Positions 11,797-53,917 of a DNA stretch of 64,000 nt are shown piece by piece. This DNA comes from Betaproteobacteria bacterium. Lineage in GTDB: Bacteria; Pseudomonadota; Gammaproteobacteria; Burkholderiales; Burkholderiaceae_C. The notes under the pieces were generated by a model, which searched no databases, was not told the origin of the DNA, and was given only the letters and a program-made list of their open reading frames with translations. A program made the translations under genes and the position numbers. Numbering within the stretch: the stretch's first letter is position 1; the number at the start of each line of letters is the position of its first letter. The DNA lies in assembly GCA_009919175.1 (NCBI GenBank), contig RGCL01000006.1:2211-66210 (forward strand), given 5' to 3'.

Positions 11797-12309
11797 ATGA
11801 ACATCAACCTGATCTGGGCGCAGTCCACCAACGGCATCATTGGCCAGGACGGAACCATGCCGTGGCACTTGCCCGAGGACTTGGCCCATTTCAGGGCGCT
11901 CACCCTGAGCCACCCCGTGATCATGGGGCGCAAGACCTGGGACTCCCTGCCCGAGCGCTTCAGGCCCTTGCCCAAGCGCACCAACATCGTGGTGACGCGC
12001 CAGGCCGACTGGGCGCCACATCACCCAGCGGTGCGCCGGGCAGACTCGGTCGCAGCGGCCTTGTCACCGCAGCTCGTGGGCGCCGATGTGAACGAGGTCT
12101 GGGTGATCGGCGGCGGACAAATCTATCAACAGTGCCTGCCCTTTGCCACGCGCGCTGAGGTCACCGAAATCCATGGCGACTTTGCGGGCGACACCCGGGC
12201 ACCATCGCTAGACCCCCGCCAATGGCAGGAAGTCAGCCGCGAGGCTCATACCTCTTCAGCGGGCTTGCGTTTTGATTTTGTGAGCCACCGGCGCGTCCAG
12301 GCCGCTTGA
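11797..12309 (+). CDS. folA: Dihydrofolate reductase
   Basis: MPWHLPEDLAHFR, VIMGRKTWDSL, RPLPKRTNIV, VIGGGQIY. Confidence 0.95.
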   Translation: MNINLIWAQSTNGIIGQDGTMPWHLPEDLAHFRALTLSHPVIMGRKTWDSLPERFRPLPKRTNIVVTRQADWAPHHPAVRRADSVAAALSPQLVGADVNEVWVIGGGQIYQQCLPFATRAEVTEIHGDFAGDTRAPSLDPRQWQEVSREAHTSSAGLRFDFVSHRRVQAA

Positions 12310-13205
12310 GTGTGGCGCCAACCCTGCGGCGCCAGATAAGCCACGACGAGCAGACACGCCCCTTGCAGCGCCCAAGGCATGGACGGTGACCATTCGCCCG
12401 CCCAATTGGGCACAAACTGCACAAAGGCCGCGCCCAGCCACAAGCCACTGAGCAGCCCCACACCCGACACCGCCAAACCCACGAGCAGGGTGATGGACAA
12501 GAAGGCCGAATAAGCATCCGGCGACACAAAACCCACCCAGGCTGCGCCCAGGCCACCCGCCAGGCTGGTGAGGGCGCCCGAGATCGCAAAGGCGCACACC
12601 TTCAAAGGCGTGAGGTTCACGCCCAGGGCTTCAAGGGCTTGCGGGTGGTCGCGCAAGGCTTGCAAGGCCAGCCCCCAATGCCGCTGGCGAGCCCATCGCT
12701 CCAATGCCATGCAAGCTGCCAGCAACAGGACCAGCCCCAGGGTGTAGAGGCGTGCACGGTCTGAGGCCGTGTCAAAGGCCAACCAGGTGAGGCCTTGCGA
12801 GCCGCCCGTCCACGCGCCCAGGCCTGGTGCCTTGAGGACCTGTGGCCAGGCCGCCGCCAAGGCAAAGGTCGCCAAGGCCAGCAAATGACCCGACAAGCGC
12901 CCAGCCACCCAGGCCATGAGCGCGCCCAGCGCCGCCCCCATCAACGTGGCGGCCAGCAAGCTCAGCGCCAGCGGCCAATGCAGGTGGACCGCCGTCATGG
13001 CCGCCACATACGCCCCGCATCCCAACCAAGCCCCATGCCCGATGGAGATCATGCCGCCCAGGCCGGTGAGCACATGCAAGCCCAGCAATGCGAGGACCAT
13101 GACCATCCACAGGTTGAACTGAAACAGGTGAAAGTCCCCCAGGGTCCAGGGTGCGATCAGCAGCCCTGCCCAAAAGACTCCGCCAAGCTGGGTGACCCAA
13201 CGCAT
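12246..13205 (-). CDS. livM: Branched-chain amino acid ABC permease, LivM-like
   Basis: LTGLGGMISIGHGA, TGGSQG, KVCAFAISGALTSLAGGL; 3' end overlaps the folA 3' end. Confidence 0.8.
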   Translation of the reverse strand: MRWVTQLGGVFWAGLLIAPWTLGDFHLFQFNLWMVMVLALLGLHVLTGLGGMISIGHGAWLGCGAYVAAMTAVHLHWPLALSLLAATLMGAALGALMAWVAGRLSGHLLALATFALAAAWPQVLKAPGLGAWTGGSQGLTWLAFDTASDRARLYTLGLVLLLAACMALERWARQRHWGLALQALRDHPQALEALGVNLTPLKVCAFAISGALTSLAGGLGAAWVGFVSPDAYSAFLSITLLVGLAVSGVGLLSGLWLGAAFVQFVPNWAGEWSPSMPWALQGACLLVVAYLAPQGWRHTQAAWTRRWLTKSKRKPAEEV

Positions 13206-14083
13206 CAGTGCGCCCTCCCCGGGGCGGTGCCCAGCAACCCTTGAGGCCGCAAGGCCAGCACGAGTACGATGAGCAGCAAGGCCATGGGTTGCTTGAGTTC
13301 ATGGCCCACCACAAAGGCGCCCAACCAGTTGTCCAGCACGCCCACCACCAAGCCCCCCAGCACGGCGCCCGGCGGGCTGTTCAAGCCACCCAGCACGGCC
13401 GCCGCAAAGGCATAGAGCAGCACGTTCATCATCATGTTGGGCTCCAGGTACACCATGGGTGCGATCAACACCCCTGCTACCGCACCCACCATGGCAGCCA
13501 AGCCCCAACCCCAGGCCAGCATCCACGACACTGGCAGGCCCAGCCAGCGCGCAGCCTCGGGGTGCTGCGCCGCTGCACGCAGGGCCAGACCCCAGCGGGT
13601 GAATCTGAAAAACACATAGACCCACGCCATCATGACTAGGGTCACCGCGACCACCCCCAATTGATGGCCCGTCCACCACGGCAGGGCAGCCAGGCCTTGC
13701 TGCGGAAAAGGACTCGCAAAGCCTTTGAGCATGTGCCCCCATTGCCAGGACATGAACGCATGGAAAACCATGAGCAGCCCCACGAACACCATCACCTGCG
13801 TGAGCAAGGGCGCGCGTTCAACCGGGCGCAGGCACAAGCGATGCACCACCACCCCCATGATCAGACTCAACACCAAGGTGAGCGCCAAGGCCAGGACCAG
13901 CGGCAAACCCGCTTGCATCAGGCTCCAGGCCAAGAAGGTGGACAGGGTGGCCATTTCGCCTTGCGCGAAATTGATGTGGTGGGTGGTGCGGTGGATCATC
14001 ACCAGCGCCAAGGCCAGGCTGGCGTAAATGAAGCCGTTGGCCAAGCCCGCCGCAGTTTGAAGCACCCAGGCATCGCTGAACAT
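13205..14083 (-). CDS. livH: Branched-chain amino acid ABC permease, LivH-like
   Basis: GLANGFIYASLALAL, INFAQGE, AFAAAVLGGLNSPPGA, RPQGLLG. Confidence 0.85.
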   Translation of the reverse strand: MFSDAWVLQTAAGLANGFIYASLALALVMIHRTTHHINFAQGEMATLSTFLAWSLMQAGLPLVLALALTLVLSLIMGVVVHRLCLRPVERAPLLTQVMVFVGLLMVFHAFMSWQWGHMLKGFASPFPQQGLAALPWWTGHQLGVVAVTLVMMAWVYVFFRFTRWGLALRAAAQHPEAARWLGLPVSWMLAWGWGLAAMVGAVAGVLIAPMVYLEPNMMMNVLLYAFAAAVLGGLNSPPGAVLGGLVVGVLDNWLGAFVVGHELKQPMALLLIVLVLALRPQGLLGTAPGRAH

Positions 14084-21739: not shown

Positions 21740-22572
21740 GGCATTGTGGGGGGCAAAACCCCGGTCGGTTGAGAAATGGCCTGCGAGCGCAAGTCCTGCA
21801 AGGCTTGCAAGCCGTGATGTGCAAACCACAAGGTGGTGAGCAAAAACACCCAGGTGTAGACCCACATGGCCAAGGGAGCCAACACCACAAAGAGGGCGGC
21901 AAACCACAGCATGGAGGACCACACGAGGCTGGGCAATGCGCCCATCATGCCGCTGGCCACACCCATGGCCAGCCATTGCCAGCGATGCGCTTGCAACACC
22001 TCTTGCAGCTCTTGCTGCGTGGCCCACTCGGACAAGACATCCAGCAGCATCACCCGCTGCGTCAACCAGCCCAGGATCAGGGCCGGGCACAGCAAGCCCA
22101 ACGGAGGAATCAGCCACAGCGGCAAGCTCAAGACCAGCAGGCACACCGCCACCAGCGTCACGCGCAAACTGGACCAGGAGACTCGCCACCATGACCACTC
22201 GGAACGTTGCTCCAGCTGTGGAAAGCGGCGCTGAGCGACCCAGCGCGTGAGGGGGCCGGCGGCCAACAAAGACACCATGACCAGCGAGAGCACGATGAGC
22301 AGGGGCGACACCAGCGCAATCACCACCACGGGTGCCATCACTGCGTTCAACAAATGCTGGCCACTGGCGGGTATCCAGGCTTGCAGGCTTTGAGCCCAGG
22401 GGTTCATGGCCCAGAGGTCTCGGATCAAGGCCTGAGCAGGTTCCCAAAACCAATACCCCCACACCCACACCAGCACCGTGAGGATGACCATGGGCAGCAC
22501 GGCCAAGGCCAGGGCTCGGGGCATGAGGCTGTAGCCCAAGGCCCGAAAGAAATTGCTGCTGATGCGAATCAT
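21736..22572 (-). CDS. EI24/CysZ-like membrane protein
   Basis: Multi-TM protein; LWLIPPL..GWLT.R...D.L pattern; overlaps the cinA-like start. Confidence 0.65.
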   Translation of the reverse strand: MIRISSNFFRALGYSLMPRALALAVLPMVILTVLVWVWGYWFWEPAQALIRDLWAMNPWAQSLQAWIPASGQHLLNAVMAPVVVIALVSPLLIVLSLVMVSLLAAGPLTRWVAQRRFPQLEQRSEWSWWRVSWSSLRVTLVAVCLLVLSLPLWLIPPLGLLCPALILGWLTQRVMLLDVLSEWATQQELQEVLQAHRWQWLAMGVASGMMGALPSLVWSSMLWFAALFVVLAPLAMWVYTWVFLLTTLWFAHHGLQALQDLRSQAISQPTGVLPPTMP

Positions 22573-23873
22573 GTGCTGCCCACCCGATCACGTTCGGCCT
22601 GTTCAACCGCTTCGTCCCAATCGATGCGGGACAGGATCCACAAGCCCAGGAGGAACAACAATGAGGTCACGGCAATGGCCAAGCGCTGCTGTCCGCCACT
22701 GCCCCAGGTCACCAGTCCATACAGCAAGGGACCCACGATGGCCGCCATGCGCATGGCCACTGACCAGAGTGCAAACATTTGTGCGGTGCGTTCGGGCGGG
22801 GTGAGGCGAGCGACCATGGCGCGTCCAATCGATTGACTCGCCCCCATGCAAAAGCCTGCAATGGCGCAGGCCACCCAGAACCACGACACGTTCGGACTCA
22901 AGGCTGCCAGCAAGCACACCGTCACCCAGCCCCACAAGGTCCAGCGCAGGGTGCGCACATGACCCAGGTGGTCCTGCAGCCAGCCCAGGCCCCATGCCCC
23001 TGCCAGCGCAGCGATGTTGAGCAGGAAGATGAGCATCATGGTGTCTTGCTTGCTCATGCCCATTTCACCCTCGGCATAAATCGCGGCCACCGCAATGGCC
23101 ACAGCCACGCCAGCCTGGTAAGCAACGATGCATTGCAACAAGCGCCACACGGGGCGCCGTGCATGAGCCCAGCGTGCGGCGTCACGCAGGGTGTGCCAAC
23201 TGCGCGAGAGAGCGGCACGCCCTGAGGCATCACGCTGGGGCTGTGCGCGCTCGGGCAATCGCAAAAAGGTGTAGCTGCCTGCCGTGAGAAAAATCACTGC
23301 GGTGATCCACAGGGTGGGGGGCACCACCTCGGCCGCGGAGCCGCCCTGCCCCATGCCGCGAATCACCCAGAACAAACACAGGGCCAGAGTGAGCATGCCG
23401 CCCACATAGCCCCAAGCCCAACCCCAGCCACTGACCTTGCCCATGGCTTCGGGTTTGGCCAGCTCAGGCAAGAAAGCGGCGATGAGGGCTTCGCCGGCGC
23501 TGTAGGCCACGTTGGACACCACCACCCACAACACCGCCCAGGCCAGATCGCCCGGACCTGCCCAGCCCAGCGCAAAGGTGCCCAGCACACACACCAGGGT
23601 ACTGAGCCACAGTGCACTTTTCTTTTTGGCATGACGGTCACACCACGCGCCAACGACAGGCATGGTCAGCATGACGATGGCATGCGACAGGCTCAAGCTG
23701 GCGGTCCACAACAAGGTTGCCCATGGAGCACCGCCGGCCACCACCCCAACGAAGTAGGTAGCAAACACCGCCGTGAGCACCACCGTGGTGTAGCCAGAGT
23801 TGGCGAAGTCGTACATGGCCCAGGCAAACACCTCGCTGCGCTTGACGCCGGGTAAGAGGGCAGATGGCTTCAT
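22569..23873 (-). CDS. MFS transporter (UMF1/ATG22-like)
   Basis: AWAMYDFANSGYTTVV signature; about 12 TM. Confidence 0.85.
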   Translation of the reverse strand: MKPSALLPGVKRSEVFAWAMYDFANSGYTTVVLTAVFATYFVGVVAGGAPWATLLWTASLSLSHAIVMLTMPVVGAWCDRHAKKKSALWLSTLVCVLGTFALGWAGPGDLAWAVLWVVVSNVAYSAGEALIAAFLPELAKPEAMGKVSGWGWAWGYVGGMLTLALCLFWVIRGMGQGGSAAEVVPPTLWITAVIFLTAGSYTFLRLPERAQPQRDASGRAALSRSWHTLRDAARWAHARRPVWRLLQCIVAYQAGVAVAIAVAAIYAEGEMGMSKQDTMMLIFLLNIAALAGAWGLGWLQDHLGHVRTLRWTLWGWVTVCLLAALSPNVSWFWVACAIAGFCMGASQSIGRAMVARLTPPERTAQMFALWSVAMRMAAIVGPLLYGLVTWGSGGQQRLAIAVTSLLFLLGLWILSRIDWDEAVEQAERDRVGST

Positions 23874-23951
23874 GTCGTGTGCGTGAAAGTGAATGCGGAT
23901 TGTCCGTGAAAAGGAATGCACCGGCCTGCCAAGTGAGTTGCGCTGAGTGAC

Positions 23952-25145
23952 TCAGGATGCGTCTGCACGCCGCTGAGGCAAGCCATGAAACACCGCAGCC
24001 GCACTCAGGCTCAAGGCCACCGTGAGCCCCAGGGCAGCCAAACCCCAGCGGTCCAGGCACACGCCAAACAGCCAGGGTGCAGCCGCTTGTGCGATGCGCG
24101 CAGGCACCATGAGCCAGCCTTGACGGTGGCCATAGGCACTCGGTCCCATCAGCACCAGGGGCAAGGTGCCTTTGGCGATGGTGAGCACGCCATTGCCCGC
24201 GCCATGCAAGACGGCAAACACCGCTGCCCAGGGGGCACCCAAGGTCACCATGAGGACCACGCCCAACGGATGTGCCAGCGCCGCAAGCCGCGCACTCACC
24301 AGCGGGTGGGACTTGCGAATCAGACTGAACTCGAGCCAACGCGCGCCCACCTGGGCGGGGCCAATCAAGGCTCCCATGGCCACCGCCGCCACCAAGCCCA
24401 GGCCTGCGAGCTGCAGCACGCGGGGAAAGTGAGCGGCCATGGCGGTACTGACAAACCAGGCCACGCCAAACGAATAGGCCAAGCCCCACCAGATGCGCCA
24501 ATCCACAGGAGGGGGCTCAGGGTCATCGGTAGAACTGACCGCTGGGGCAGTCGCAGAGTGCGCCACGGCGGGCAACGGCTTGGCGCCAGACACCCAGGCA
24601 TTCAAGGGCAAGGCCACCAGCAAGTGCAAAGCCACCCAGCCCCAGCACGCACCGCGCCAGCCCCAATGCACCTCCATCCATGCGGTGAGCGGCCAGCCGA
24701 CGGTGCTGGCAAAGCCGGCAATCAGGGTGATGCCGGTGATGGGCGCGCGGGACTGATCACGAAACAGCTTCACCAGCGTGGCAAACGCCGCCTCGTAAAG
24801 ACCTGACCCCATGGCCACACCCAGGACGCACCAGGCCAGGAGCAACTGCGAATAGGTTTGCGCAAGCGCCAGACCCGCCAAGCCCAGAGCAAAGACGAAG
24901 TTCACCAGCATCAAGACGGGGCGACCGCCCCAGCGATCGATGGCGCGCCCTGCGACGGGACCCACGACGGCACTGACCAGCATGGCCAGGGAAAAAGCCA
25001 GAAAGATGTCTGGGATGTCCACGCCCAAACCCTTGGCCATGGGCTCGGCGAGGACCGCAGGCAGGTAATAACTCGAACCCCAGGCCAGGGTCTGGGCCAC
25101 GCCCAGCACCAGCACATTGCGAAGCGTGGGTGGGCTCACGGGCAA
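23952..25145 (-). CDS. MFS transporter (resembles ArsK-type efflux family)
   Basis: LGVAQTLAWGSSYYLPA, ITLIAGFASTVGWP, LIGPAQVGAR, HGAGNGVLTI. Confidence 0.75.
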   Translation of the reverse strand: MPVSPPTLRNVLVLGVAQTLAWGSSYYLPAVLAEPMAKGLGVDIPDIFLAFSLAMLVSAVVGPVAGRAIDRWGGRPVLMLVNFVFALGLAGLALAQTYSQLLLAWCVLGVAMGSGLYEAAFATLVKLFRDQSRAPITGITLIAGFASTVGWPLTAWMEVHWGWRGACWGWVALHLLVALPLNAWVSGAKPLPAVAHSATAPAVSSTDDPEPPPVDWRIWWGLAYSFGVAWFVSTAMAAHFPRVLQLAGLGLVAAVAMGALIGPAQVGARWLEFSLIRKSHPLVSARLAALAHPLGVVLMVTLGAPWAAVFAVLHGAGNGVLTIAKGTLPLVLMGPSAYGHRQGWLMVPARIAQAAAPWLFGVCLDRWGLAALGLTVALSLSAAAVFHGLPQRRADAS

Positions 25146-25163
25146 TTGCCCCAGGTAAGGAGG

Positions 25164-26900
25164 TCAGTGGTTGTCTTTGGGCACCGCAGCACCACGCTGA
25201 CCCCGCAAGAAGTCGAGGTCCGCACCCTCATCGGCTTGCAGCACGTGATCGATGTAGAGCTTCCAGTAGCCGCTTTGCATGGCGGGCTCTGGGGGTTTCC
25301 AGGCGGCACGACGGCGAGCCAGTTCTTGATCATCGACATGCAGGTGCAGCTTTCTCTGGGGCACATCCAGGGTGATGGTGTCGCCATTTTGAACCAGCGC
25401 CAAAGGGCCACCGGCTGCAGCTTCTGGGGCGGTGTGCAACACCACCGTGCCATAGGCCGTACCACTCATGCGCGCATCGGAGATGCGCACCATGTCGGTC
25501 ACCCCTTTGCGCAGCACCTTCGGGGGCAAGGGCATGTTGCCCACTTCAGCCATGCCGGGGTAGCCCTTGGGACCGCAGTTCTTGAGCACCAGGATGCAGG
25601 TTTCGTCCACATCGAGTTGTTCGTCATCAATGCGGCGATGAAAGTCATCGCTGTCTTCAAACACCACGGCACGCCCCGTGTGAACCATGAGCGAGGGCGT
25701 GGCGGCGCTGGGCTTGATCACGGCGCCACGAGGCGCCAGGTTGCCGCGAAGAATGGCAATGCCTGCCTTTTCCTTGAAGGGCTTGGCCAGAGAACGGATC
25801 ACCTTGGGGTTGTAGTTCTCGGCGGGGGCAATGTTCTCGCCAACCGTTTGACCACTCACGGTCAGGGCTTGGGTGTGCAGGTGCTGGGCGATTTCCTTCA
25901 TCACCACCGGCAAGCCGCCGGCATAGCAAAAGTCTTCCATCAGGTATTGGCCTGAGGGCTGCAAATCCACCAGACAGGGCATCTCGCTGCCCAGCTTTTC
26001 AAAGTCGTCGATGTTCAAGGGCACGCCCAGTCGGCCAGCAATGGCAATCAGGTGAATGACCGCGTTGGTGCTGCCGCCAATGGCCGCCAAGGTGCGGATG
26101 GCGTTTTCAAAAGCCTCGCGGGTGAGGATTTGCGAGATGCGCACATCGTCCTTGACCATTTGCACGATGCGCCGGCCCGCTTCACGGGCGAGCACGTTGC
26201 GCCGACCATCCACGGCGGGGTAAGCCGCATTGCCTGGCAAACCAATGCCCAGGGCTTCGACCATGCTGGCCATGGTGGAGGCTGTGCCCATGGTCATGCA
26301 GTGGCCGTGGCTGCGGTGCATGCAGCTCTCGGCCTCGAAAAAGTCCTGAAGCTTGAGCGTGCCCGCACGCACTTGCTCACTCATGCTCCACACGCCCGTG
26401 CCCGAGCCCAGTTCCTGGCCGCGCCATTTGCCGTTGAGCATGGGTCCGCCGCTCACCCCAATGGTGGGCAGGTTGACGCTGGAGGCTCCCATGAGCAGGC
26501 TGGGTGTGGTCTTGTCACAGCCCATGAGCAACACCACACCATCGATGGGATTGCCGCGAATGCTCTCTTCCACATCCATGCTGGCGAGGTTGCGATACAG
26601 CATGGCCGTGGGGCGCAACAAGGTTTCACCCAGGGACATGACTGGGAATTCCAGTGGGAAGCCGCCAGCCTCATAGACACCAATCTTGACCTGCTCGGCG
26701 AGGGTGCGAAAGTGTGAGTTGCACGGGGTCAGCTCGCTGAAGGTGTTGCAAATGCCAATGACCGGGCGGCCATCGAACTGGTCGTGCGGCACCCCTTTGC
26801 CTTTGACCCAGCTGCGGTAGGCAAAACCGTCACGGTCCTGACGACCAAACCAGGCTTGTGAACGAAGGGGTTTTTTGGAAGAGGAATCCGATTGGCTCAT
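25164..26900 (-). CDS. IlvD/Edd-family sugar-acid dehydratase
   Basis: SELTPCN, GCDKTTP, HCMTMGTASTM, GGSTN, DARMSGT; L-arabinonate-dehydratase-like clade. Confidence 0.88.
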   Translation of the reverse strand: MSQSDSSSKKPLRSQAWFGRQDRDGFAYRSWVKGKGVPHDQFDGRPVIGICNTFSELTPCNSHFRTLAEQVKIGVYEAGGFPLEFPVMSLGETLLRPTAMLYRNLASMDVEESIRGNPIDGVVLLMGCDKTTPSLLMGASSVNLPTIGVSGGPMLNGKWRGQELGSGTGVWSMSEQVRAGTLKLQDFFEAESCMHRSHGHCMTMGTASTMASMVEALGIGLPGNAAYPAVDGRRNVLAREAGRRIVQMVKDDVRISQILTREAFENAIRTLAAIGGSTNAVIHLIAIAGRLGVPLNIDDFEKLGSEMPCLVDLQPSGQYLMEDFCYAGGLPVVMKEIAQHLHTQALTVSGQTVGENIAPAENYNPKVIRSLAKPFKEKAGIAILRGNLAPRGAVIKPSAATPSLMVHTGRAVVFEDSDDFHRRIDDEQLDVDETCILVLKNCGPKGYPGMAEVGNMPLPPKVLRKGVTDMVRISDARMSGTAYGTVVLHTAPEAAAGGPLALVQNGDTITLDVPQRKLHLHVDDQELARRRAAWKPPEPAMQSGYWKLYIDHVLQADEGADLDFLRGQRGAAVPKDNH

Positions 26901-36218: not shown

Positions 36219-36327
36219 CGGGGGCATGACCGCGCTTTGGAGCATGGACCTTTCCTGCTCTGAAGCCTGCCGATTGAATGGCAACCGGTGCTCTTAGAAT
36301 CACCTCAGCTTGGAGCGGTATACCCCG

Positions 36328-37143
36328 ATGGATTACGCAGTCACTTTTGCAACGCTTAACTGCCTGGACTACACTAAAAAATGCGTAGACAGCCTGTTGA
36401 AATCCGGGGTTTCTCTGGATCGACTCGTGATCGTCGACAACCATTCAAGCGATGGCACACAGGACTACTTGCGAACGCTCAATCCTGGTCATTTGATACT
36501 GAACCGAGACAATCTTTCCTGTGGTGCGGCATGGAACCAGGGCATCTTGGCCATGCAAAAAGAATGGACCATCGTCATGAACAACGACATCGTTGTTGCG
36601 CCCGGATTTGCAGAACGCCTCATTCAATTCGCCGTTCAAAATGATCTGAAGTTGGTTTCTCCAGCCCGAATTGATGGGCAATTGGATTACGACTTTGCGG
36701 ACTTTGCGAGCCAATCGCAAATCAACATGGCCAATGCCACTCGCTGGGGATCATCCAATGCGGTTTGCATGTGCATGCACTGGTCCTTGTTTCATCAAGT
36801 TGGATTTTTTCGCATGGCGCCCCAGCTATTGGGCTTTGAGGATGGTCTTTTCTATAACGAAATTCGCAAGCACCATATTCCTCACGCGACGACCGGTTCG
36901 GTTTGGATCCACCATTTTGGTCAAGTCACCCAAGATCACATGAAGATGGTATTGGGAATGAACACCAAAGATGTCCTGGTCAAAGTCAATGACAGAAAGC
37001 TGTATCAGCAAAGCTGGATAGAGAGAAAACTGCATCGACATCAGTTGAAGCGCTCACTGCGCCAGTGGAGAACCCAGGAATTGGCGCAATTTGGTCAGAC
37101 TTTGCATGGGTACCGGGCCAACCAGGAATTCATATGGCTTTGA
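36328..37143 (+). CDS. Glycosyltransferase family 2
   Basis: VIVDNHSSDGT, AWNQG, VMNND, GFEDG. Confidence 0.85.
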   Translation: MDYAVTFATLNCLDYTKKCVDSLLKSGVSLDRLVIVDNHSSDGTQDYLRTLNPGHLILNRDNLSCGAAWNQGILAMQKEWTIVMNNDIVVAPGFAERLIQFAVQNDLKLVSPARIDGQLDYDFADFASQSQINMANATRWGSSNAVCMCMHWSLFHQVGFFRMAPQLLGFEDGLFYNEIRKHHIPHATTGSVWIHHFGQVTQDHMKMVLGMNTKDVLVKVNDRKLYQQSWIERKLHRHQLKRSLRQWRTQELAQFGQTLHGYRANQEFIWL

Positions 37144-38417
37144 ATGGGCTGCGCCACATCAATCTGCGCAATCTGTTGATCATTTCGCCCTTGGGCTTCA
37201 TGACCTACAGGCATTGGACCAACGGCATTGTTTTTTTATTCTTTGTCCTCTCTCTGATTTACCTCTGGAGAAATCGCAGCCATCAGACTGGATCTCCAAA
37301 AACAACATCCTCAATGGGTAGCGATTTATGGGTAGTCGCTTGCCTTGCTGGCTTGGTGACTGCGGTGGGAATTGGGCAGCTGCTCAGACAGCATTTCTAT
37401 GCCCCCAATTTTGATGCCCCACTCCGGCTGGCCATGTGCATTCCGATCTACTTGGCGCTCAGAAAAGGGTGGCTCACAAATGAACAAAACCATAAACCCA
37501 TCACCGTGTGGTGGATGACGGTTATTTTTCCCCTGACTTTGATTTGGACCTTGGTCTGCTTTCTTTTGACAGCTCCGAATGAATGGGGGGTTCATCGAGG
37601 GACCTATTTTGTAGACCCATTATCTTTTTCAAGTTATTGCTTGCTATTTTCATTATTGAGCATCGGCGGACTGACCTTTCATTACAGGCAGCTGGGGCGG
37701 TTTGAAGTCCTCTTAAGCGTGCTGGGGATATTGAGTGGTTTTTACATGGCCATCATCGTCAACAGTCGGACTGGTTGGTTGAATGTGCCCTTTTTCCTTG
37801 CGCTATGGTCTTATTTCTATCTTTGGCCTCAATGGGGAACCAAGCGCACACTCATGGTCATTGCTTTGATATTGGCCTGTTTGGTTGGCATGCTCATCCA
37901 ACATCCTGGTCTCGCAGAAAAATTTCTACTGGGATTGCACGAAATCAAAGCATACAAATGGGATGAAATGAACCCAGACCAATCGGTGATCATGCGCATT
38001 TCCTTTTATCGATTGGCCTTTTTTTATTTCATTCATAACCCCTTGGCTGGATGGGGAGACCTGGGTTGGCAAACCTTGATGAATCACCCTGAAATTACCC
38101 GATTTGCCTCTCAATACACACGTGAGTCCACTTCACATGGATTTCATAATGAAATCATCACCAACTCGATCCGCTCGGGCGTGTGGGGATTGATCGCAAG
38201 TCTGATGTTTTTTGGTGTGGTTCTACAAAGGGCTGTGAATGGACTTCGTCAAGACCATGCGAAAGTCAAGTTCATATCCTTTTGCCTGATGGCATTCATT
38301 TCCCATCTTCTCCTGGCGGGGATCGGCACAGAGATCACCAACCTGGTATTTCTTTGCTCATTCATTGGATTGAGTCTCAGCGTCATGCTGGCAGAGCAAG
38401 TGAACATGGATACCTAA
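37134..38417 (+). CDS. O-antigen ligase (WaaL/Wzy_C-like) membrane protein
   Basis: About 12 TM, SRTGW, S..MR, HNPLAGWG, HGFHNEI. Confidence 0.82.
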   Translation: MALNGLRHINLRNLLIISPLGFMTYRHWTNGIVFLFFVLSLIYLWRNRSHQTGSPKTTSSMGSDLWVVACLAGLVTAVGIGQLLRQHFYAPNFDAPLRLAMCIPIYLALRKGWLTNEQNHKPITVWWMTVIFPLTLIWTLVCFLLTAPNEWGVHRGTYFVDPLSFSSYCLLFSLLSIGGLTFHYRQLGRFEVLLSVLGILSGFYMAIIVNSRTGWLNVPFFLALWSYFYLWPQWGTKRTLMVIALILACLVGMLIQHPGLAEKFLLGLHEIKAYKWDEMNPDQSVIMRISFYRLAFFYFIHNPLAGWGDLGWQTLMNHPEITRFASQYTRESTSHGFHNEIITNSIRSGVWGLIASLMFFGVVLQRAVNGLRQDHAKVKFISFCLMAFISHLLLAGIGTEITNLVFLCSFIGLSLSVMLAEQVNMDT

Positions 38418-39271
38418 TTAATGATCTGCGGCATCTCAATGATTTCAGAGAAATTTTGCGCCACAAAATCAAATGAGATTTGACATTCAATCCCACAAGA
38501 AACAATGTCCTTGTACCATGACTCGTTGAAGTCAATGATTTTTGGATGCCTCATATTACGCAAGAGTGCAGAGGTCCAATACAACTTGTCGACACGTAAT
38601 TGATATCCCTCATCCACCTTGGCGCTGATGTACTCAGCCATTTGATCTTTTTGGGCCTGGTACCTTGCCTGAATCATGGAGGTTCCAAACTCATTGAGTA
38701 TGTTTTTTTTCAGATCAGGATGCCTGCGAATCATCAACATGGCTTGATTTCTCTCGATTTCAGAAATCCAGCCAGCGAGATGATTGGTGCTGAATTCAAT
38801 CTTGTCATCAACGTAGAGGAGATAGTCGTAATTCCCCAGTTGACCGAATAAATGCGGCATCGCTTTGGCGATTTTCGATTGCTGTGCAGAGAGTATTCGA
38901 TTGCTTGAAACAGGTAAATTCAATTCAATACCCATCCACCCCATATCCTTGGCAGCAGAAAGGACGTCCTGATTGTTGGATATGAAGTAGTGATCAATGG
39001 ATCGATCCACCGGACTTCGTCTGAAAGTCTTGGCGTTACTTGCACCCATATAGGTTGAATAAACAGCAATCCTTGAAGATGGATGTACTTTTTGGCCTTT
39101 TTGGCCTTGGGTAAGAATCTTTAATTGATCTATTGAAAGAATTTCTCTATCAAAATCATTGCTCAAAGAACTTTGGAATTTTGAGTTTCTTCGGTCCTGG
39201 ACCCTCTTGCGATTAAAGGCTTTGATTCGCTGTATGAGATTGAGCATTGGATATCGAACCTTGTGAGTCAA
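38414..39271 (-). CDS. DUF616-like putative glycosyltransferase
   Basis: VYST.MG, K.AK.MPH, YDYLLYVDDK, RRHP, CQISFDFV. Confidence 0.6.
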   Translation of the reverse strand: MTHKVRYPMLNLIQRIKAFNRKRVQDRRNSKFQSSLSNDFDREILSIDQLKILTQGQKGQKVHPSSRIAVYSTYMGASNAKTFRRSPVDRSIDHYFISNNQDVLSAAKDMGWMGIELNLPVSSNRILSAQQSKIAKAMPHLFGQLGNYDYLLYVDDKIEFSTNHLAGWISEIERNQAMLMIRRHPDLKKNILNEFGTSMIQARYQAQKDQMAEYISAKVDEGYQLRVDKLYWTSALLRNMRHPKIIDFNESWYKDIVSCGIECQISFDFVAQNFSEIIEMPQIIN

Positions 39272-39322
39272 TCACCAACATCTGGATGCCCAGTTGTACT
39301 GACCTGAGGGCATCAGTAGGTT

Positions 39323-48413: not shown

Positions 48414-48485
48414 AGGCAAATGCCCATTTCCAAGCTTTTGGCTGGTCTGTCTTGCTGACAGACAATGTGGGAAAGGGAATTTGAA

Positions 48486-49577
48486 ATGTCTGACCGCTTC
48501 GCGCAAGAACCGTCTTACCGCCATGGCCAATCCAACAAGATTGGTATCGTTTGGTGCAACCTGGGCACGCCAGATGCACCCACCGCATCGGCGCTGAGGC
48601 GCTATTTGGCGCAGTTTCTAGGGGATCCTCGTGTGGTGGAGATTCCCCGTCTGGTTTGGCTGCCCATTCTTCACGGCATCATCCTTCGCCTTCGGCCTGC
48701 GAAATCTGCAGCCAAGTACGCCAGCATCTGGACCGAGCAGGGATCTCCCCTGCTTCATGGCACCTTGTCTCAAGCCCAAGCTCTTCAAACGCGTTTCGAT
48801 CCTGAGCGGGTGATGGTCAGACCTGCCATGCGTTACGGCTCTCCAGCTTTACCCACTGTGCTTGATGAAATGCGATCAGCCGGCGTGAATCAGTTGCTTG
48901 TGCTGAGCGCCTATCCGCAATACTCAGCCACCACCACGGCCAGTGTTTGGGACGATGTGTGTCAATGGATGAAACGGCATCGCAATCTGCCTGAGATGCG
49001 TTGGGTCAAGCACTATCACGATCACCCCAAATACATTGAAGCGCTGGCTGCGCAAGTTCGCCGGCATTGGCAAACCACGGGGCGACAAGCCCATTTGGTG
49101 ATGAGTTTTCATGGCGTGCCACAGCGCACCCTGGAGTTGGGCGATCCCTATCACTGCGAGTGTCACAAAACTGGTCGACTGCTGGCTCAGGCCCTGTCAC
49201 TCAAGTCTGACCAATACACCCTGACTTTCCAGTCAAGGTTTGGCAAAGCCAAATGGCTGGAACCCTACACAGAACCCACTGTCAAACGACTTGCGCAAGA
49301 GGGTCACCAAGCGTTGGATGTCATCTGCCCAGGTTTTGTCACAGACTGTCTGGAAACCTTGGAAGAAATTGCCATGGAGGTTCAGGCGGCGTTTCTTGAA
49401 TCCGGTGGCAGCGACTTTGGCTATATCCCTTGTTTGAATTCCGACCCCAGTTGGATAGACGCCTTGGTCGACATTGCAAGCACACACCTTCATGGCTGGA
49501 ACACATCCACTGTGAGCAATGTCAAGGAATTGGATGAGCAACGTGTCAGAGCCTTGGCCCTGGGTGCCAAGAACTGA
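48486..49577 (+). CDS. hemH: Ferrochelatase
   Basis: NLGTP, AMRYG.P, YPQYS, SFHG, FQSRFG..WLEP, DCLETLEEI. Confidence 0.95.
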   Translation: MSDRFAQEPSYRHGQSNKIGIVWCNLGTPDAPTASALRRYLAQFLGDPRVVEIPRLVWLPILHGIILRLRPAKSAAKYASIWTEQGSPLLHGTLSQAQALQTRFDPERVMVRPAMRYGSPALPTVLDEMRSAGVNQLLVLSAYPQYSATTTASVWDDVCQWMKRHRNLPEMRWVKHYHDHPKYIEALAAQVRRHWQTTGRQAHLVMSFHGVPQRTLELGDPYHCECHKTGRLLAQALSLKSDQYTLTFQSRFGKAKWLEPYTEPTVKRLAQEGHQALDVICPGFVTDCLETLEEIAMEVQAAFLESGGSDFGYIPCLNSDPSWIDALVDIASTHLHGWNTSTVSNVKELDEQRVRALALGAKN

Positions 49578-49593
49578 ACGCGTTCATGGGTCA

Positions 49594-50088
49594 TCAGACG
49601 TGATTCAAAAAGCCCAACCCATAGACCACAAGAAGTAAGGTCACAACGATGCTGACCCACAGCATGACCCGAGCACCACGCTGAGATCCAGGGCTGTCAC
49701 TTTCTGCCATGGCTTCGGTTGGTGGTGCCATCACTTGGTCTACTTGAGTGTCCCTTCTTTCACTCACTTCATCGGCCAAGTTTGGGTCCAATGGTGGGTT
49801 GGCAAGCGGGTGTAAAGGTTCGGCACGAACACTCACAGCAACCGTAGCCTCAGGTGAAGCAGTTGCAACCTCAGTTTGGTGTTTGTGAGCATCCAGCAAA
49901 ACAGCCAATCTCATTGTGGCCTTGCGTTTGATGTCGTCATTGTAAAAAGAGGAGGTGCCACCCTCCTCGATTTGCTTGACTTGCTTGACCGATAAACAAG
50001 CCCAAGCGGCTAATTCTTGTTGACTCAGGCCCCTGCTTTCCCGCAAGGATTTGATCAATGTCCCATCTACAGCAATGAGGGATGACAT
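49594..50088 (-). CDS. XRE-HTH protein with C-terminal TM (RodZ-like N-terminus)
   Basis: IKSLRESRGLSQQELA...QIEEG..SFY; Pro/Ala linker; hydrophobic VMLWVSIVVTLLLVVYGLGFL at the C-terminus. Confidence 0.7.
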   Translation of the reverse strand: MSSLIAVDGTLIKSLRESRGLSQQELAAWACLSVKQVKQIEEGGTSSFYNDDIKRKATMRLAVLLDAHKHQTEVATASPEATVAVSVRAEPLHPLANPPLDPNLADEVSERRDTQVDQVMAPPTEAMAESDSPGSQRGARVMLWVSIVVTLLLVVYGLGFLNHV

Positions 50089-50109
50089 GAGTCAATCAGT
50101 GAAAAATCG

Positions 50110-50568
50110 TCATTTGACGAGCAGAAGTTCGCCCTTGATCGACGCGCCCTTTTGGACGGACAACGTTTGGTAAACCACATGGCCATCGACAGAGGCAGAT
50201 GAGGTGACGATCAGTTCCTGACAAGTGGCTGTGCCGGAGAACTTACCTTTGATGTGCAAGCTAGAGCAGGTCACCACGCCTTCAACCTGACCTTTTGAAC
50301 CGATGGTCAACTCGTCAACTTGAATTTGTCCGTTCAAAGAGCCTTCCACATGGATGGCGCCTTTGGCTGCAATCTCACCTCGGAAGGAAAATCCCTCACT
50401 GAGGATAGAGGGCTTGGAAGCGGTGGTAGACAAAGCATCCATGACTGAAGGTTTTGAAAGGGTTGAAGGGGGAGTATCCGACTCACGGCCAATTTCGCCC
50501 ATCGTCTCCGATGAGGGAGATGAAGTCGCAATGCCACTGTTACCGGGCGGTTTTGATTTGTTGAACAT
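50110..50568 (-). CDS. Bactofilin (polymer-forming cytoskeletal protein) B
   Basis: SILSEG..FRGEI...HVEG..NGQI..DELTIG..G.V.G, V.G.V.Y..LSVQKGA.IKG beta-helix repeats; N-terminal MFNK. Confidence 0.85.
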   Translation of the reverse strand: MFNKSKPPGNSGIATSSPSSETMGEIGRESDTPPSTLSKPSVMDALSTTASKPSILSEGFSFRGEIAAKGAIHVEGSLNGQIQVDELTIGSKGQVEGVVTCSSLHIKGKFSGTATCQELIVTSSASVDGHVVYQTLSVQKGASIKGELLLVK

Positions 50569-51550
50569 ATTGAGCCGTTCGAATCACATTTTGCGGGTTG
50601 ACTGGATAGCCTCCAATGAGGATTTCCAGGTGGAGATGCTTGCCAGTGGACACACCAGAGTTGCCAATATATCCCAAGACGGTATCGACACCAACCGTGT
50701 CGCCTTGTTTCACCAACACTTTTGATAAATGTCCATAGACGGATTCAATGCCATTGGAATGGCGGACCATCACCATGTTGCCGTAGCTTGGATGCTCCTG
50801 AGCGCCCATCACAACGCCTGATTTGACGGGATAAATGCGCTCGTCCGGGTCATCAGTGATCAAGTCGATGCCACTGTGAAAGTGGGCACGACCTGAAATG
50901 GGGTGCTTGCGAATGCCAAAGCCAGAGGTGATTTCAAAAGACTTAATGGGCATGGCGCTGGGCAATGCATACAACACATCGCGCAGGGAACGATTGGTTT
51001 CCAAATCTTCTGCCACCTTGCCGCGCAACAAGGGGTTGGACTTGAGATCATCATTGACGGTGAATCCACCCTTGGCAGAGTTGTCCTGGATGATGCGAAC
51101 AATCTTTTCAGTCAAGCCTGCTGTCTGTAGCTGAGTCTTGATGGTTTCGTTTTCCTTGGATACCGCCACCATGGACATGTCCACGAAACGACGAATGCTC
51201 GTATCGCGGTCACGAATGGCTTGTGCGAGTGTGAGCATCTGGGATTCATCAATGGATTCACCCGCTACGTCTTGTTCGTTGCTCGATAGCAAAGCGCGAT
51301 AAACCGCCTCGTGAGAGCGCTCAAGCTTCATGCGGCTGATCAAGAGATCCACATTGACCACCACCATCAGCGTGAGCAACAAAGTCAAACCGCCAACTGT
51401 GACGATGGCGCTGCGCACCAACCACTTTTGAACTGAGGCCGTGATACTTAAATAATGCAAATCACCTTGTTGTTCAAGGATGATGCGCGCATCTTTGAAT
51501 GGATGATTCCAACCCTTGACCACCAAAGCAGGGATCTGTTTGATCAACAT
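50540..51550 (-). CDS. M23 metallo-endopeptidase with N-terminal TM (start may be 51574)
   Basis: SGFGIRKHP, HSGID (HxxxD), YGNMV, YGHL, STGKHLH (HxH); TM near the N-terminus followed by a helical stalk. Confidence 0.9.
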   Translation of the reverse strand: MLIKQIPALVVKGWNHPFKDARIILEQQGDLHYLSITASVQKWLVRSAIVTVGGLTLLLTLMVVVNVDLLISRMKLERSHEAVYRALLSSNEQDVAGESIDESQMLTLAQAIRDRDTSIRRFVDMSMVAVSKENETIKTQLQTAGLTEKIVRIIQDNSAKGGFTVNDDLKSNPLLRGKVAEDLETNRSLRDVLYALPSAMPIKSFEITSGFGIRKHPISGRAHFHSGIDLITDDPDERIYPVKSGVVMGAQEHPSYGNMVMVRHSNGIESVYGHLSKVLVKQGDTVGVDTVLGYIGNSGVSTGKHLHLEILIGGYPVNPQNVIRTAQYVQQIKTAR

Positions 51551-51583
51551 CCATGGAAAACGAAAACGCCGCATGAGAAACCT

Positions 51584-52069
51584 TTACGCCTTATCGGCTC
51601 CCTCGGGCTTGGCTGGCTCAGAGGCAGGCGCAGGAGAAGGTGCAGCAGCAGGCGTTAGAGGAGGTACAACCGCGGTCGGTGCAACAAACGTGGGTGCAGA
51701 AACAGGCGCCTGCACGGACATGCGAACCGGGGGGCTATCCAGACCCTGATTCAACACCCCCTCGATCTCACCGCCTTTTTCGATTTCGATTTCGGAATAG
51801 TGAACCTTGCCCGCAAGTTTGCCGCTGCTGCGCACAATCAAGCTCTTTTCACTGATGATGTCGTTATGCAGTTCGCCACGAACATCAATCACCTTGGCCT
51901 TGATTCGGCCGGTGATTTTCCCAGTGGGACCAATCAACAATTCATCCGCAGTCAGGTCACCCTCGATGACACCATTGATGATGGCTTTGGAGGGGACGGT
52001 GAAGGTGCCTTTGACCATGACACCGTCGCCAATGACAATGCTGTCTAAAGAATCAGATTGATTTGACAT
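51584..52069 (-). CDS. Bactofilin (polymer-forming cytoskeletal protein) A
   Basis: IVIGDGVMVKG, INGVIEGD, LLIGPTGKITG, GKVHYSEIEIEKGGEIEG; Pro/Ala-rich tail. Confidence 0.85.
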   Translation of the reverse strand: MSNQSDSLDSIVIGDGVMVKGTFTVPSKAIINGVIEGDLTADELLIGPTGKITGRIKAKVIDVRGELHNDIISEKSLIVRSSGKLAGKVHYSEIEIEKGGEIEGVLNQGLDSPPVRMSVQAPVSAPTFVAPTAVVPPLTPAAAPSPAPASEPAKPEGADKA

Positions 52070-52109
52070 GTTGATTCACGCTCCTTGAGCGGATGTTAAC
52101 AAACCAGAC

Positions 52110-52201
52110 CTGAATCAAATTGAATTCAGAACGTATTGATTTCATTGAATTTTCTATTGTTAGAAACTCAAAGGATCGAAACTTTCTGAATCAACTTGAA
52201 T
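52110..52201. repeat. 16-bp direct repeat pair CTGAATCAA(A/C)TTGAAT
   Basis: Copies at 52110-52125 and 52186-52201, 15/16 identical. Confidence 0.8.
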
Positions 52202-52280
52202 AAGCGTAAAAAGCTTGACATCCGGGATGGTGAATGAATTCATTTGTATAAATTATCCCAATGAAGTTCAAAGGATTGAA
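52168..52280. repeat. 13-bp direct repeat pair TCAAAGGAT(C/T)GAA
   Basis: Copies at 52168-52180 and 52268-52280, 12/13 identical, 100 bp apart. Confidence 0.75.
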
Positions 52281-52360
52281 TGTCATATCAACACTGGGAA
52301 GATTTCACAACATTGAGTCTGAAATGAGACAAATTTTTGTAACCTCATTCCTTAAAGGCT

Positions 52361-53917
52361 TTAGATTGGGGGGCGTCCAGCTCCTGATTTGCCCTGACCA
52401 GTCGCCGGTCGGCTCTTGTGGGTGCGATGACCCGCATGCGCATGGTGGGCCTCGTCGCGTCCCGTTCTTGAGCCTGGTGAGGCATGTGAAGTTGACTTGG
52501 GCGCACCGTCAGCACGCGCAAAGCGATCGCCTGAACGTGGCTTGGCTGTCGATGTCCCACCGTTTCTCGAACGCTGTCCACGGTGACCCGAACCGGGTTT
52601 GGTGGCGGCATGTTTTGGCTTGGACAAACGCTGCCTTGGCTCCAGACCCTCGACAACGTGAACTGCCATGGGGCGGCCCAAATACTGCTCAATGGCGTTG
52701 ACTTTTCTGGACTCGCGCATCAAGGCAAATGTGACCGCCAAGCCCTTGCGCCCTGCTCTGCCCGTACGGCCAATGCGGTGCACATGGTCTTCTTCTTTCA
52801 TGGGTAAGCCGTGGTTGAAGACGTGGCTGATACCTGGCACGTCAATGCCACGTGCAGCCACATCGGTGGCCACGAGAAATTTCAGACGACCGCTGCGCAA
52901 CTGGGTCAGTCGGCGATTGCGCACCGCCTGACTCAGCGCACCATGCAAAGCCATGGCGGAAAAGCCTTCATCTTGGAGGTACTGTGCCAATGCCTCACAA
53001 CCCACCTGTGTGCTCGTGAAGATGATGGCCTGCTCAATGTTGACGTCCCTGAGCCAATGCTCCAGTAGTCTGGAACGATGAGCTTCGTCATCAGCCCAGT
53101 AAAGACGTTGCTCAATGCTTTCGTGGGCTTTGCGGTTGTCATGCAATTGCAAGCGAGTTGCGCCAGGTGCCAAGGCCTTAGCCAGCCTCTCGATGGGGGG
53201 GTCAAAGGTGGCGCTGAACATCATGGTGCAGGCTCGCTGGGCTGTCATTTCATCCACCCGCGCAAGGTCAGGGGCAAAGCCCAGGTCCAGCATGCGGTCG
53301 GCTTCATCCAGCACCAACCACTGCACCGCACTCAAATCGAGGCTACCCGAGTCGGCCAAATCCAACAATCGGCCAGGGGTGGCAATCACCATGTCCACAT
53401 TTTGAAGACGTGACATTTGCACGGCATAGGGCATGCCGCCCACCAGGCAAGCCACACGCGGGCCTTTGCCTGCACGCACCAAATTGATCGCATCGTTGGC
53501 CACTTGCTGCGCCAGTTCACGCGTGGGGCACAAGATCAAGGCACTGGGCTTGGGGGTGACAAAGTGCCTGGGGTTATAGGGGTTGCGACGTTTGGTCGCC
53601 GCCTTGCGCTTGCCAAAAGCATCGGCAGGCGCCTCAGCATTGGGACTCTTTTGCGCCATCTGCCCCGTGCGTTGAAGTTCGATGGATTGCAGCACTGGCA
53701 GCAAAAAGGCCAAGGTCTTGCCGCTGCCGGTCTGGCTGGAAACCAAGAGGTTGGGGGCTTGATCAGCGGCCTTGACCCAGTGGTCCCAAACCGTGGATTG
53801 GACTGAGGTGGGGGATTCAAATCCCAAACTCGCTACCGCATCTTTGAGGAAAGGGGCAAGGTCAAAAGGGCAAAAGGCAGGCGCAACAGCGGTCTGCTCG
53901 GTGTGAGTAGAGTTCAT
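52361..53917 (-). CDS. DEAD-box RNA helicase (RhlE-like)
   Basis: SQTGSGKT, PTRELA, TPGRLLD, DEAD, SAT, ARGID, HRIGRTGRAG; basic disordered tail. Confidence 0.93.
   Translation of the reverse strand: MNSTHTEQTAVAPAFCPFDLAPFLKDAVASLGFESPTSVQSTVWDHWVKAADQAPNLLVSSQTGSGKTLAFLLPVLQSIELQRTGQMAQKSPNAEAPADAFGKRKAATKRRNPYNPRHFVTPKPSALILCPTRELAQQVANDAINLVRAGKGPRVACLVGGMPYAVQMSRLQNVDMVIATPGRLLDLADSGSLDLSAVQWLVLDEADRMLDLGFAPDLARVDEMTAQRACTMMFSATFDPPIERLAKALAPGATRLQLHDNRKAHESIEQRLYWADDEAHRSRLLEHWLRDVNIEQAIIFTSTQVGCEALAQYLQDEGFSAMALHGALSQAVRNRRLTQLRSGRLKFLVATDVAARGIDVPGISHVFNHGLPMKEEDHVHRIGRTGRAGRKGLAVTFALMRESRKVNAIEQYLGRPMAVHVVEGLEPRQRLSKPKHAATKPGSGHRGQRSRNGGTSTAKPRSGDRFARADGAPKSTSHASPGSRTGRDEAHHAHAGHRTHKSRPATGQGKSGAGRPPI

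Follow-up and report, generated by a model that had tools for sequence, protein, structure and literature searches.

A 64,000-nucleotide stretch of contig RGCL01000006.1 from a Betaproteobacteria bacterium (hereafter, the window) carries an operon that probably encodes a peptidoglycan endopeptidase guided by bactofilin, in a variant form of the BacA-LmdC morphogenetic module; we put the probability of this reading at roughly 70%. The operon comprises four genes: bacN, encoding an upstream bactofilin; M23, encoding a metallopeptidase; bacC, encoding a second bactofilin; and HTH-TM, encoding a helix-turn-helix (HTH) protein with a C-terminal transmembrane (TM) segment. Its core is an already known kind of system, of the BacA-LmdC type. 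What appear to be new are (i) a clade in which a second bactofilin, lacking a membrane-targeting sequence (MTS), invariably stands upstream of the peptidase, and (ii) the HTH-TM accessory, with its invariant linker motif.

Organization of the operon and conservation of its core

All four open reading frames (ORFs) lie on the minus strand, in the order bacN, M23, bacC, HTH-TM. bacN and M23 are 9 nt apart (33 nt if Met9 is taken as the M23 start), M23 and bacC share 29 nt, and 21 nt separate bacC from HTH-TM, bearing out an earlier reading of this DNA (the original prediction) that had described four co-oriented, tightly packed genes. The bactofilin and peptidase assignments made there also held: PF04519 matched both bacN (E 7e-20, 71.5 bits) and bacC (E 1e-22, 80.2 bits; cut-off 27.9 bits), and PF01551 matched M23 (E 2e-25, 89.4 bits). 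By hydropathy, M23 has one TM segment (residues ~53-80) and HTH-TM has one at its extreme C-terminus (~139-161), while neither bacN nor bacC has any.

Two scans supplied loci for the study of linkage. A scan of genome contigs with the single M23 protein yielded five close relatives, and a scan of metagenome contigs with a diverse alignment, using a generic M23 catalytic-motif pattern, yielded 80 loci, most of them unrelated M23 genes. M23 stood between two bactofilins at 17 of the 17 loci that could be assessed on both sides (window included), in a clade in which M23 identity falls to 25% and locus GC content ranges from 37 to 71%. A bacN-type ortholog was found upstream of M23 at every assessable locus of the clade. 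At 77 other M23 loci of the metagenome scan, taken as background, ~19 had a downstream bactofilin only, none had an upstream bactofilin, and the remainder had neither.

The five close genomic relatives (L001-L005) keep the orn-to-hpnE neighbourhood with all four genes, the L002 contig ending just past bacC. More distant relatives carry the bactofilin-M23-bactofilin triad in unrelated neighbourhoods: L006-L009, L012, L091, L092, L093, L096, and the P0330 locus. The M23 protein of L006 (P0351) is named Hydrogenophaga sp. by NCBI/UniRef. Additionally, the upstream bactofilin is present before the contig end at L095, and the downstream one is present at L013. Chance clustering is excluded, because the same gene order recurs in related loci amid unrelated neighbourhoods. 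HTH-TM, in contrast to the triad, was present at seven loci and absent from ten. The conserved unit is thus bactofilin-M23-bactofilin, with HTH-TM outside the core; the linkage of all four genes is not conserved as a block.

More than 500 relatives of the M23 protein were found; the best 120 listed are 57-100% identical to it, most of them ~60%, and the named taxa among the relatives listed are Limnohabitans sp. and Burkholderiales or Betaproteobacteria metagenome-assembled genomes (MAGs). Near-identical copies of the region occur in many freshwater and riverine metagenomes. The host is accordingly a freshwater betaproteobacterium, probably of the order Burkholderiales and close to Limnohabitans.

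Some loci elaborate on the triad. In L092 (1815-4241, GC 41%) the order is bactofilin-M23-bactofilin-bactofilin, the third bactofilin carrying a 50-residue N-terminal extension, and the module lies between tpiA-secG and nuoA-B-C. At L091 (2637-3994), the last 4 nt of a MotB_plug/OmpA-domain gene overlap the beginning of the upstream bactofilin gene, which suggests translational coupling of the bactofilin to a peptidoglycan-binding, stator-like protein. At L008 (1-3230) and the P0330 locus, both of low GC, the module adjoins a bacteriorhodopsin-family gene and carotenoid/polyprenyl genes.

The M23 peptidase

The catalytic site of M23 is intact. Its zinc ligands are H233-x3-D237 and H315, and its catalytic residues are H282 and H313 (in H313-x-H315); all five positions were invariant in alignments of 51 close and 35 diverse relatives, in agreement with the HxxxD and HxH ligands originally reported. 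The best partial matches in NCBIfam were ShyA, Pgp3, and MepM. With Foldseek, the M23 domain was closest to the DD-endopeptidase ShyA, to Pgp3 of C. jejuni, and to Csd1/Csd2, and it also matched LytM.

An AlphaFold2 (AF2) model of the protein predicted a helix at residues 5-22, a cytoplasmic beta-hairpin (strands 29-35/38-44, predicted local distance difference test [pLDDT] ~80), a long helix at 46-100 that includes the TM segment, stalk helices at 110-168, and a domain of M23 fold at ~214-327. Together with hydropathy, the model upholds the predicted layout of a short cytoplasmic N-terminus, one TM segment, and a helical stalk. By this predicted topology M23 is an LmdC-type protein, with a short cytoplasmic region, a single TM segment, a periplasmic helical stalk, and a C-terminal M23 domain. 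The hairpin peptide is the most conserved stretch of the cytoplasmic tail across the family. The tail motif, W22...[FY].D28.R.I32.E34-Q35.G.L39.Y41....Q49, persists down to 25-27% overall identity; close relatives show no variation at D28, I32, E34, Q35, L39, or Y41, and the motif is retained among the 35 diverse relatives, P0185 and P0207 included.

Pöhl et al. (eLife 2024, PMC10945521) showed that LmdC has DD-endopeptidase activity and that it binds BacA through its cytoplasmic hairpin. The proposed likeness of the M23 N-terminus to that of LmdC/DUF5930 stood in part: a hairpin is predicted and is the best-conserved part of the tail, but the DUF5930 hidden Markov model (HMM) missed the protein, and the link to that family is only transitive, via P0185 and P0207. 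These two full-length relatives, 27-29% identical to M23, do pass DUF5930 (27.5 and 34.3 bits, respectively), and the P0207 locus is canonical, with M23 followed by an overlapping bactofilin that scores as bacC-type. Gene overlap is also shared: in every locus of the clade the end of M23 runs 11-32 nt into bacC, and by their coordinates the lmdC and bacA genes of H. neptunium, R. rubrum, and C. crescentus overlap by 17-20 nt. We treat M23 as a putative divergent sister clade of the DUF5930/LmdC proteins, on the grounds of architecture and transitive homology rather than of the HMM, and, by analogy, as probably working like LmdC.

Two unlike bactofilins

The two bactofilins are only 26% identical to each other, and HMMs built for each class separated bacN from bacC cleanly at every locus. 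bacN begins MSNQSDS, enters its beta-helical core at about residue 12, and ends in a Pro/Ala-rich tail of ~55 residues (~107-161). No MF.K membrane-targeting peptide was found in bacN or its orthologs, and the bacN ORF has no start codon further 5'. bacC begins MFNKSK(PP), followed by a disordered linker of ~45 residues and then the core, and has no C-terminal tail; an MF[NGSK]-type start was seen in all 14 bacC orthologs examined. Experiments defined the MTS of BacA as MFSKQAKS, against a global consensus of MFSKKKK; the lysines and Phe2 are critical for it (PMC12448750). The MFNKSK start of bacC is, by this resemblance, a putative BacA-like membrane-targeting peptide.

Among solved structures, bacN matched 6ria (7e-7) and 2n3d (1e-5), the latter being C. 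crescentus BacA. bacC was closer to BacA (1e-12) and also matched 6ria. The bactofilin of the canonical DUF5930-type pair scored 84.8 bits with the bacC-class HMM, versus 50.5 bits with the other. The overlap with M23, the similarity to BacA, the MFNKSK start, and this class assignment of the canonical pair argue that bacC is the ancestral BacA-type partner and that bacN is an addition.

Transcription of the operon

Two independent metatranscriptome studies cover the operon. One (X25) contains a single 2834-nt contig (49410-52243, depth 19.8) that spans all four genes with 174 nt upstream and 184 nt downstream; in the same data, the flanking hemH has a depth of 3.2 and the 3' end of the helicase gene on the other side a depth of 5.8. 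The other study (X4) has one contig with M23, bacC, and HTH-TM (49269-51610, depth 22) and a second with bacN and its leader (51624-52206, depth 35), hemH being at depth 4-6. Because depth steps at the borders of the cluster, 3-6-fold over the flanks, the four genes appear to be co-transcribed as one transcript, as had been supposed. The RNA contigs of the operon continue for 184-325 nt beyond HTH-TM and enter the 3' end of hemH, so that the convergent hemH and operon transcripts would overlap, if the strand assigned to the contigs is correct.

A ribosome-binding site, AAGGAG, lies 8 nt before the bacN ATG. Further upstream, the element TCAATGAAATCAATACGTTC is conserved in the window and L001-L005, whereas the intergenic sequence that flanks it is not. 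By our own reading it may comprise two ATCAAT direct repeats and lie near the integration host factor (IHF) consensus WATCAANNNNTTR; as it falls within the region covered by RNA contigs, it may belong to the 5' leader. A promoter and terminator consensus scan of 49300-52500 returned counts at shuffled background, with the 'terminators' inside coding sequence, and Rfam gave no match in 49200-52500.

Proposed function of the core module

Gene order, domain content, catalytic residues, the predicted hairpin, TM segment, and stalk, conservation of the triad, and co-transcription, all taken directly from the data, can be combined with homology and with the literature on BacA-LmdC and BacA-PbpC into the following model. 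bacC would form polymers at the cytoplasmic side of the inner membrane, to which its N-terminal MFNKSK would tether it. M23 would dock on this polymer through its conserved cytoplasmic beta-hairpin, and its periplasmic stalk would present a domain of presumed DD-endopeptidase specificity to the wall. Cleavage of cross-links would then be confined to the zone marked by bactofilin, changing wall growth locally and, with it, cell shape (curvature, constriction, or the boundary of a growth zone). bacN, having no membrane peptide, would most likely co-assemble with bacC or be tethered through a membrane client, and its Pro/Ala-rich tail may provide a further docking surface. In some lineages only, HTH-TM might serve the bactofilin scaffold as a tail-anchored client or as its anchor, binding through its HTH, its linker motif, or both.

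Several observations weigh against this model. DUF5930 (PF19353) was unmatched, both with the whole M23 protein at E<=0.1 and with residues 1-220 at E<=10, and the overall pLDDT of the M23 model is only 61. The partner of the hairpin could be either bactofilin, bacC or bacN. The RNA contigs carry no strand information and may include DNA. Ten of the 17 loci lack HTH-TM (L006-L009, L012, L091-L093, L096, and the P0330 locus), and the Foldseek and PDB matches of this protein are DNA-binding XRE regulators (HipB, C-proteins, ClgR, SinR). The source organism is an uncultured MAG, known here from its genes alone. Finally, plain rods may be among the carriers of the module, one locus being named Hydrogenophaga sp., so that a role in curvature is not implied.

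The module could instead serve some other local remodelling of the wall, such as at insertion zones, in maturation of the division site or pole, or around an envelope-spanning structure, rather than the shape of the cell body. The roles of bactofilins are indeed diverse: a 2025 preprint (10.1101/2025.04.09.647816) reports that in Borrelia burgdorferi they organise peptidoglycan insertion, and BacP of M. xanthus binds PadC (cited in PMC12448750). The apparent translational coupling of the MotB_plug/OmpA gene to bacN at L091 would fit such a role, as would the GC range of the module loci, which probably span many morphologies. Yet wherever an M23 peptidase of the LmdC or Csd1 type with a bactofilin next to it has been studied by experiment, it affects cell shape (PMC10945521), and the neighbourhoods examined show no consistent linkage of the module to flagellar or secretion genes. 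We consider this alternative unlikely, and favour a bactofilin-guided endopeptidase that acts on shape.

The HTH-TM protein

HTH-TM matched HTH_31 (8e-7) and HTH_3 (8e-6) in Pfam, both above threshold. In its AF2 model the HTH helices occupy residues 9-41 and a long helix follows at 51-75; a disordered linker then leads to the TM helix at 139-161. Arg137 and Arg139 lie at or just before the TM segment, ~3 residues follow it, and there is no signal peptide, from which we infer a cytoplasmic N-terminus (N-in, single TM). Within the linker, otherwise disordered and unconserved, the motif R88-A-E-x-L-H-x-L-A-x-P-P99 recurs as R-A/S-E-x-x-H-x-L-A-x-P-P in all nine aligned orthologs, and looks like a candidate docking peptide for a partner. 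The orthologs (159-292 residues) keep the HTH, an invariant '(Q/E)(I/L)EEGG..FY..(I/V)K', the linker motif, and the TM helix; those of L003-L005 place ~85 Pro/Ala/Thr-rich, unstructured residues outside the membrane, with no Pfam match and no folded domain.

The protein evolves much faster than its neighbours, with 41% identity to its L001 ortholog (80-87% for the other three genes) and 33% to that of L005 (others, 56-74%). Only five matches were found in a database of 5.8 billion proteins, and one source labels a homolog RodZ. HTH-TM is present in the window, L001, L003-L005, L011, and L013, the last representing a lineage of 66% GC in which M23 is only 42% identical. It is, consequently, a lineage-restricted accessory and not part of the conserved core.

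Three roles may be ranked for it: a client or membrane anchor of the bactofilins, then a tethered regulator of the operon, and then a RodZ-like adaptor to MreB. Each of these, taken singly, we hold to be well short of an even chance. What makes the first plausible is that bacN has no MTS of its own and that membrane clients are able to stand in for a missing one (PMC12448750).

As a membrane-tethered XRE transcription factor, HTH-TM would control the operon by binding DNA, for example the element upstream of bacN, and might respond to the state of the membrane or envelope. Its best Pfam matches are DNA-binding families, its top Foldseek and PDB-sequence matches are all DNA-binding regulators, the conserved AT-rich element occurs upstream of bacN in exactly those loci that have HTH-TM, and the protein is an optional addition to the module, as regulators often are. 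The element, however, is an IHF-like direct repeat, while XRE dimers typically use an inverted repeat, and since the loci compared for it are close relatives, its conservation may reflect shared ancestry only. Moreover, helix 3 ends in 'IEEGG', whose two acidic residues are nearer to RodZ than to typical repressors, and an invariant linker motif and a C-terminal membrane anchor would be unusual in a simple repressor. We regard such a regulator as possible, if somewhat unlikely.

The original prediction had called HTH-TM RodZ-like, and in this capacity it would be a miniature adaptor whose HTH binds MreB or bactofilin and couples the scaffold to the elongasome. The part of the claim that stood is topology (HTH, linker, single TM, N-in) and a weak similarity to HTH helices 1-3. 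Aligned with E. coli RodZ by hhalign (probability 94.5%), the protein is 41% identical over RodZ residues 14-52 (39 columns, HTH helices 1-3), including CL..V..IEE. A profile of the HTH-TM orthologs scored E. coli RodZ at 22.1 bits, versus <=18 bits for the best XRE HTH in the PDB and 8-13 bits for three control repressors. In a tblastn search with E. coli RodZ, HTH-TM was the best match in the window, and no canonical rodZ was found in its 64 kb. HTH_25 comes near its threshold in some orthologs (it is the top Pfam match for that of L005, and 0.8 bits short for that of L001), and the RodZ label on one homolog points the same way. The want of a periplasmic domain need not tell against the idea, the periplasmic domain of RodZ being largely dispensable in E. 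coli (PMC6946637).

The rest of the claim did not stand. HTH_25 fell below its cut-off of 24.6 bits in all three orthologs tested (19.3 bits for the window protein, 17.0 and 23.8 bits for the others), HTH_31 and HTH_3 outscored it for the window protein, and PRK10856 of NCBIfam reached 21.3 bits against a cut-off of 208. Pfam showed no DUF4115 and no folded periplasmic domain, and no solved RodZ appeared in the PDB profile search (E<=10) or in the Foldseek top 50, which returned generic XRE DNA-binders only. The similarity ends at RodZ residue 49-52, before helix 4, in which F60 and Y64 of the E. coli protein contact MreB (PMC6946637); in a hand alignment F48 of HTH-TM stands opposite F60, but Asp52 stands opposite Y64, F48 and Y49 being the invariant pair in the orthologs. 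The rlmN-rodZ-ispG context of E. coli is not present around HTH-TM, and the protein is missing from more than half of the loci. Membership of HTH-TM in the RodZ family is not established, a link to MreB and the elongasome is speculation, and the adaptor role seems to us doubtful at best.

The same low standing applies to a second layer that might be added to the core model, in which a RodZ-like HTH and/or the linker motif of HTH-TM would fix bacN polymers to the membrane and connect them with another cytoskeletal system, for example MreB; we think this quite improbable. If true, a two-bactofilin scaffold would position one endopeptidase relative to the elongasome, as a bactofilin counterpart of MreB-RodZ. 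Whichever role applies, HTH-TM is a candidate for a new bactofilin client, anchor, or regulator.

Genomic surroundings

The features of the operon are collected in Table 1. Upstream of it, in the same orientation, are genes for a DEAD-box helicase and an RNase T-family exonuclease, the latter read as oligoribonuclease (orn). Downstream, hemH (48465-49577) is convergent, its stop codon lying 16 nt from that of HTH-TM, and beyond it are hopanoid-type genes (identified by sequence reading) and an amine-oxidase-type gene. A functional tie of the module to the hopanoid-type genes, hemH, the DEAD-box helicase, or orn was considered and rejected, as these neighbours are kept only in close relatives and differ elsewhere.

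Two other features of the window were recorded. At ~36300-39300, GC content drops to 47-49%, versus 55-65% elsewhere, over genes for a family-2 glycosyltransferase and a Wzy_C O-antigen-ligase-type protein and a 285-residue ORF without a Pfam match; this is probably a surface-polysaccharide islet. In the first half of the window (62-65% GC), a strong positive AT skew (+0.18 to +0.29) was seen at positions 1-2000, 12000-14000, and 22000-26000.

Table 1. Features of the bactofilin-M23 operon, in window coordinates
Feature	Position	Strand	Remarks
bacN (upstream bactofilin)	51584-52069	minus	161 aa; PF04519
M23 (LmdC-type bitopic M23 metallopeptidase; topology predicted)	50540-51574	minus	344 aa; PF01551
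bacC (downstream BacA-type bactofilin)	50110-50568	minus	152 aa; PF04519
HTH-TM (tail-anchored XRE-type helix-turn-helix protein)	49594-50088	minus	164 aa; HTH_31/HTH_3
AT-rich intergenic region, probable promoter and 5' leader	52070-52360	minus	upstream of bacN; 291 nt
Conserved element TCAATGAAATCAATACGTTC	52129-52148	minus	~60-80 nt upstream of bacN ATG
Probable 3' untranslated end of operon transcript	49270-49593	minus (inferred; RNA contigs unstranded)	RNA contig ends

Significance and comparison with known systems

Bactofilin-M23 modules are currently the best-understood route away from a plain rod, and only single-bactofilin versions have been studied. Here, a clade of M23 peptidases, diverse in sequence and GC content, is always sandwiched by bactofilins with and without a membrane-targeting peptide, raising the questions of how MTS-less bactofilins reach the membrane and what a hetero-bactofilin scaffold adds. 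The genus Limnohabitans, to which named relatives of M23 belong, spans cocci, rods, curved rods, and solenoids (PMC3591437), and its cultured members would allow morphology to be compared with the occurrence, sequence, and expression of the module.

The original prediction knew of no described betaproteobacterial version with two unlike bactofilins around the peptidase and a RodZ-like membrane protein. Simple pairs are already on record in this group: the catalogue of bactofilin-M23 pairs of Pöhl et al. 2024, covering ~226 species, already contains three Burkholderiales (Rubrivivax gelatinosus, Thiomonas intermedia, and Ottowia sp.) (PMC10945521). The flanking of one M23 gene by two bactofilins is, however, absent from that catalogue, where the sole sandwich is the reverse, a bactofilin between two M23 genes in Meiothermus (PMC10945521). 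Literature searches for bactofilins in beta-proteobacterial taxa, or alongside flanking paralogs, likewise returned no description of the arrangement.

Of the known systems, RodZ (E. coli b2516) resembles HTH-TM in its N-terminal cytoplasmic XRE-type HTH, its linker, and its single TM segment, with the identity over helices 1-3 noted above. Unlike RodZ, which combines HTH_25 with DUF4115, HTH-TM has no DUF4115, exposes from 3 to ~85 unstructured residues outside the membrane, and stays below the HTH_25 threshold; nor is the helix-4 MreB-contact motif recognisably conserved, and the protein differs in genomic context, evolves fast, and is patchily distributed.

The CcmA-Csd1/Csd2 system of Helicobacter pylori shares a bactofilin gene clustered and overlapping with M23 gene(s), and the M23 fold found here resembles Csd1/Csd2 by Foldseek. 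In that system and in the M23-bactofilin-M23 type of Meiothermus, two M23 genes flank or precede one bactofilin gene, whereas here two bactofilins flank one M23. Csd1 and Csd2 are not known to have an LmdC-type hairpin and stalk.

Caulobacter crescentus likewise has two bactofilins, BacA and BacB. Its bacB gene is not known to lie next to bacA, and the two proteins are closely related paralogs, in contrast to the low identity of bacN and bacC. As in the present operon, the BacA/BacB-PbpC system pairs two bactofilins with a bitopic wall enzyme, there recruited by a short conserved cytoplasmic peptide (PMC12448750). That a client can substitute for a missing MTS in this system is relevant to the MTS-less bacN. 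Its client, unlike M23, is a class A penicillin-binding protein, a synthase rather than a hydrolase.

The closest likeness in architecture is to BacA-LmdC of Hyphomonas neptunium and Rhodospirillum rubrum (PMC10945521), which shares the bitopic M23 protein with its hairpin tail, TM segment, stalk, and M23 domain, and in which the bactofilin gene likewise lies directly downstream, overlaps M23, and encodes an MFxK-type N-terminus. The present module departs from it in an M23 N-terminal region that fails DUF5930, and in being known from genes alone. To the shared plan, the clade described here adds a divergent, MTS-less upstream bactofilin in every member, and HTH-TM in a subset.

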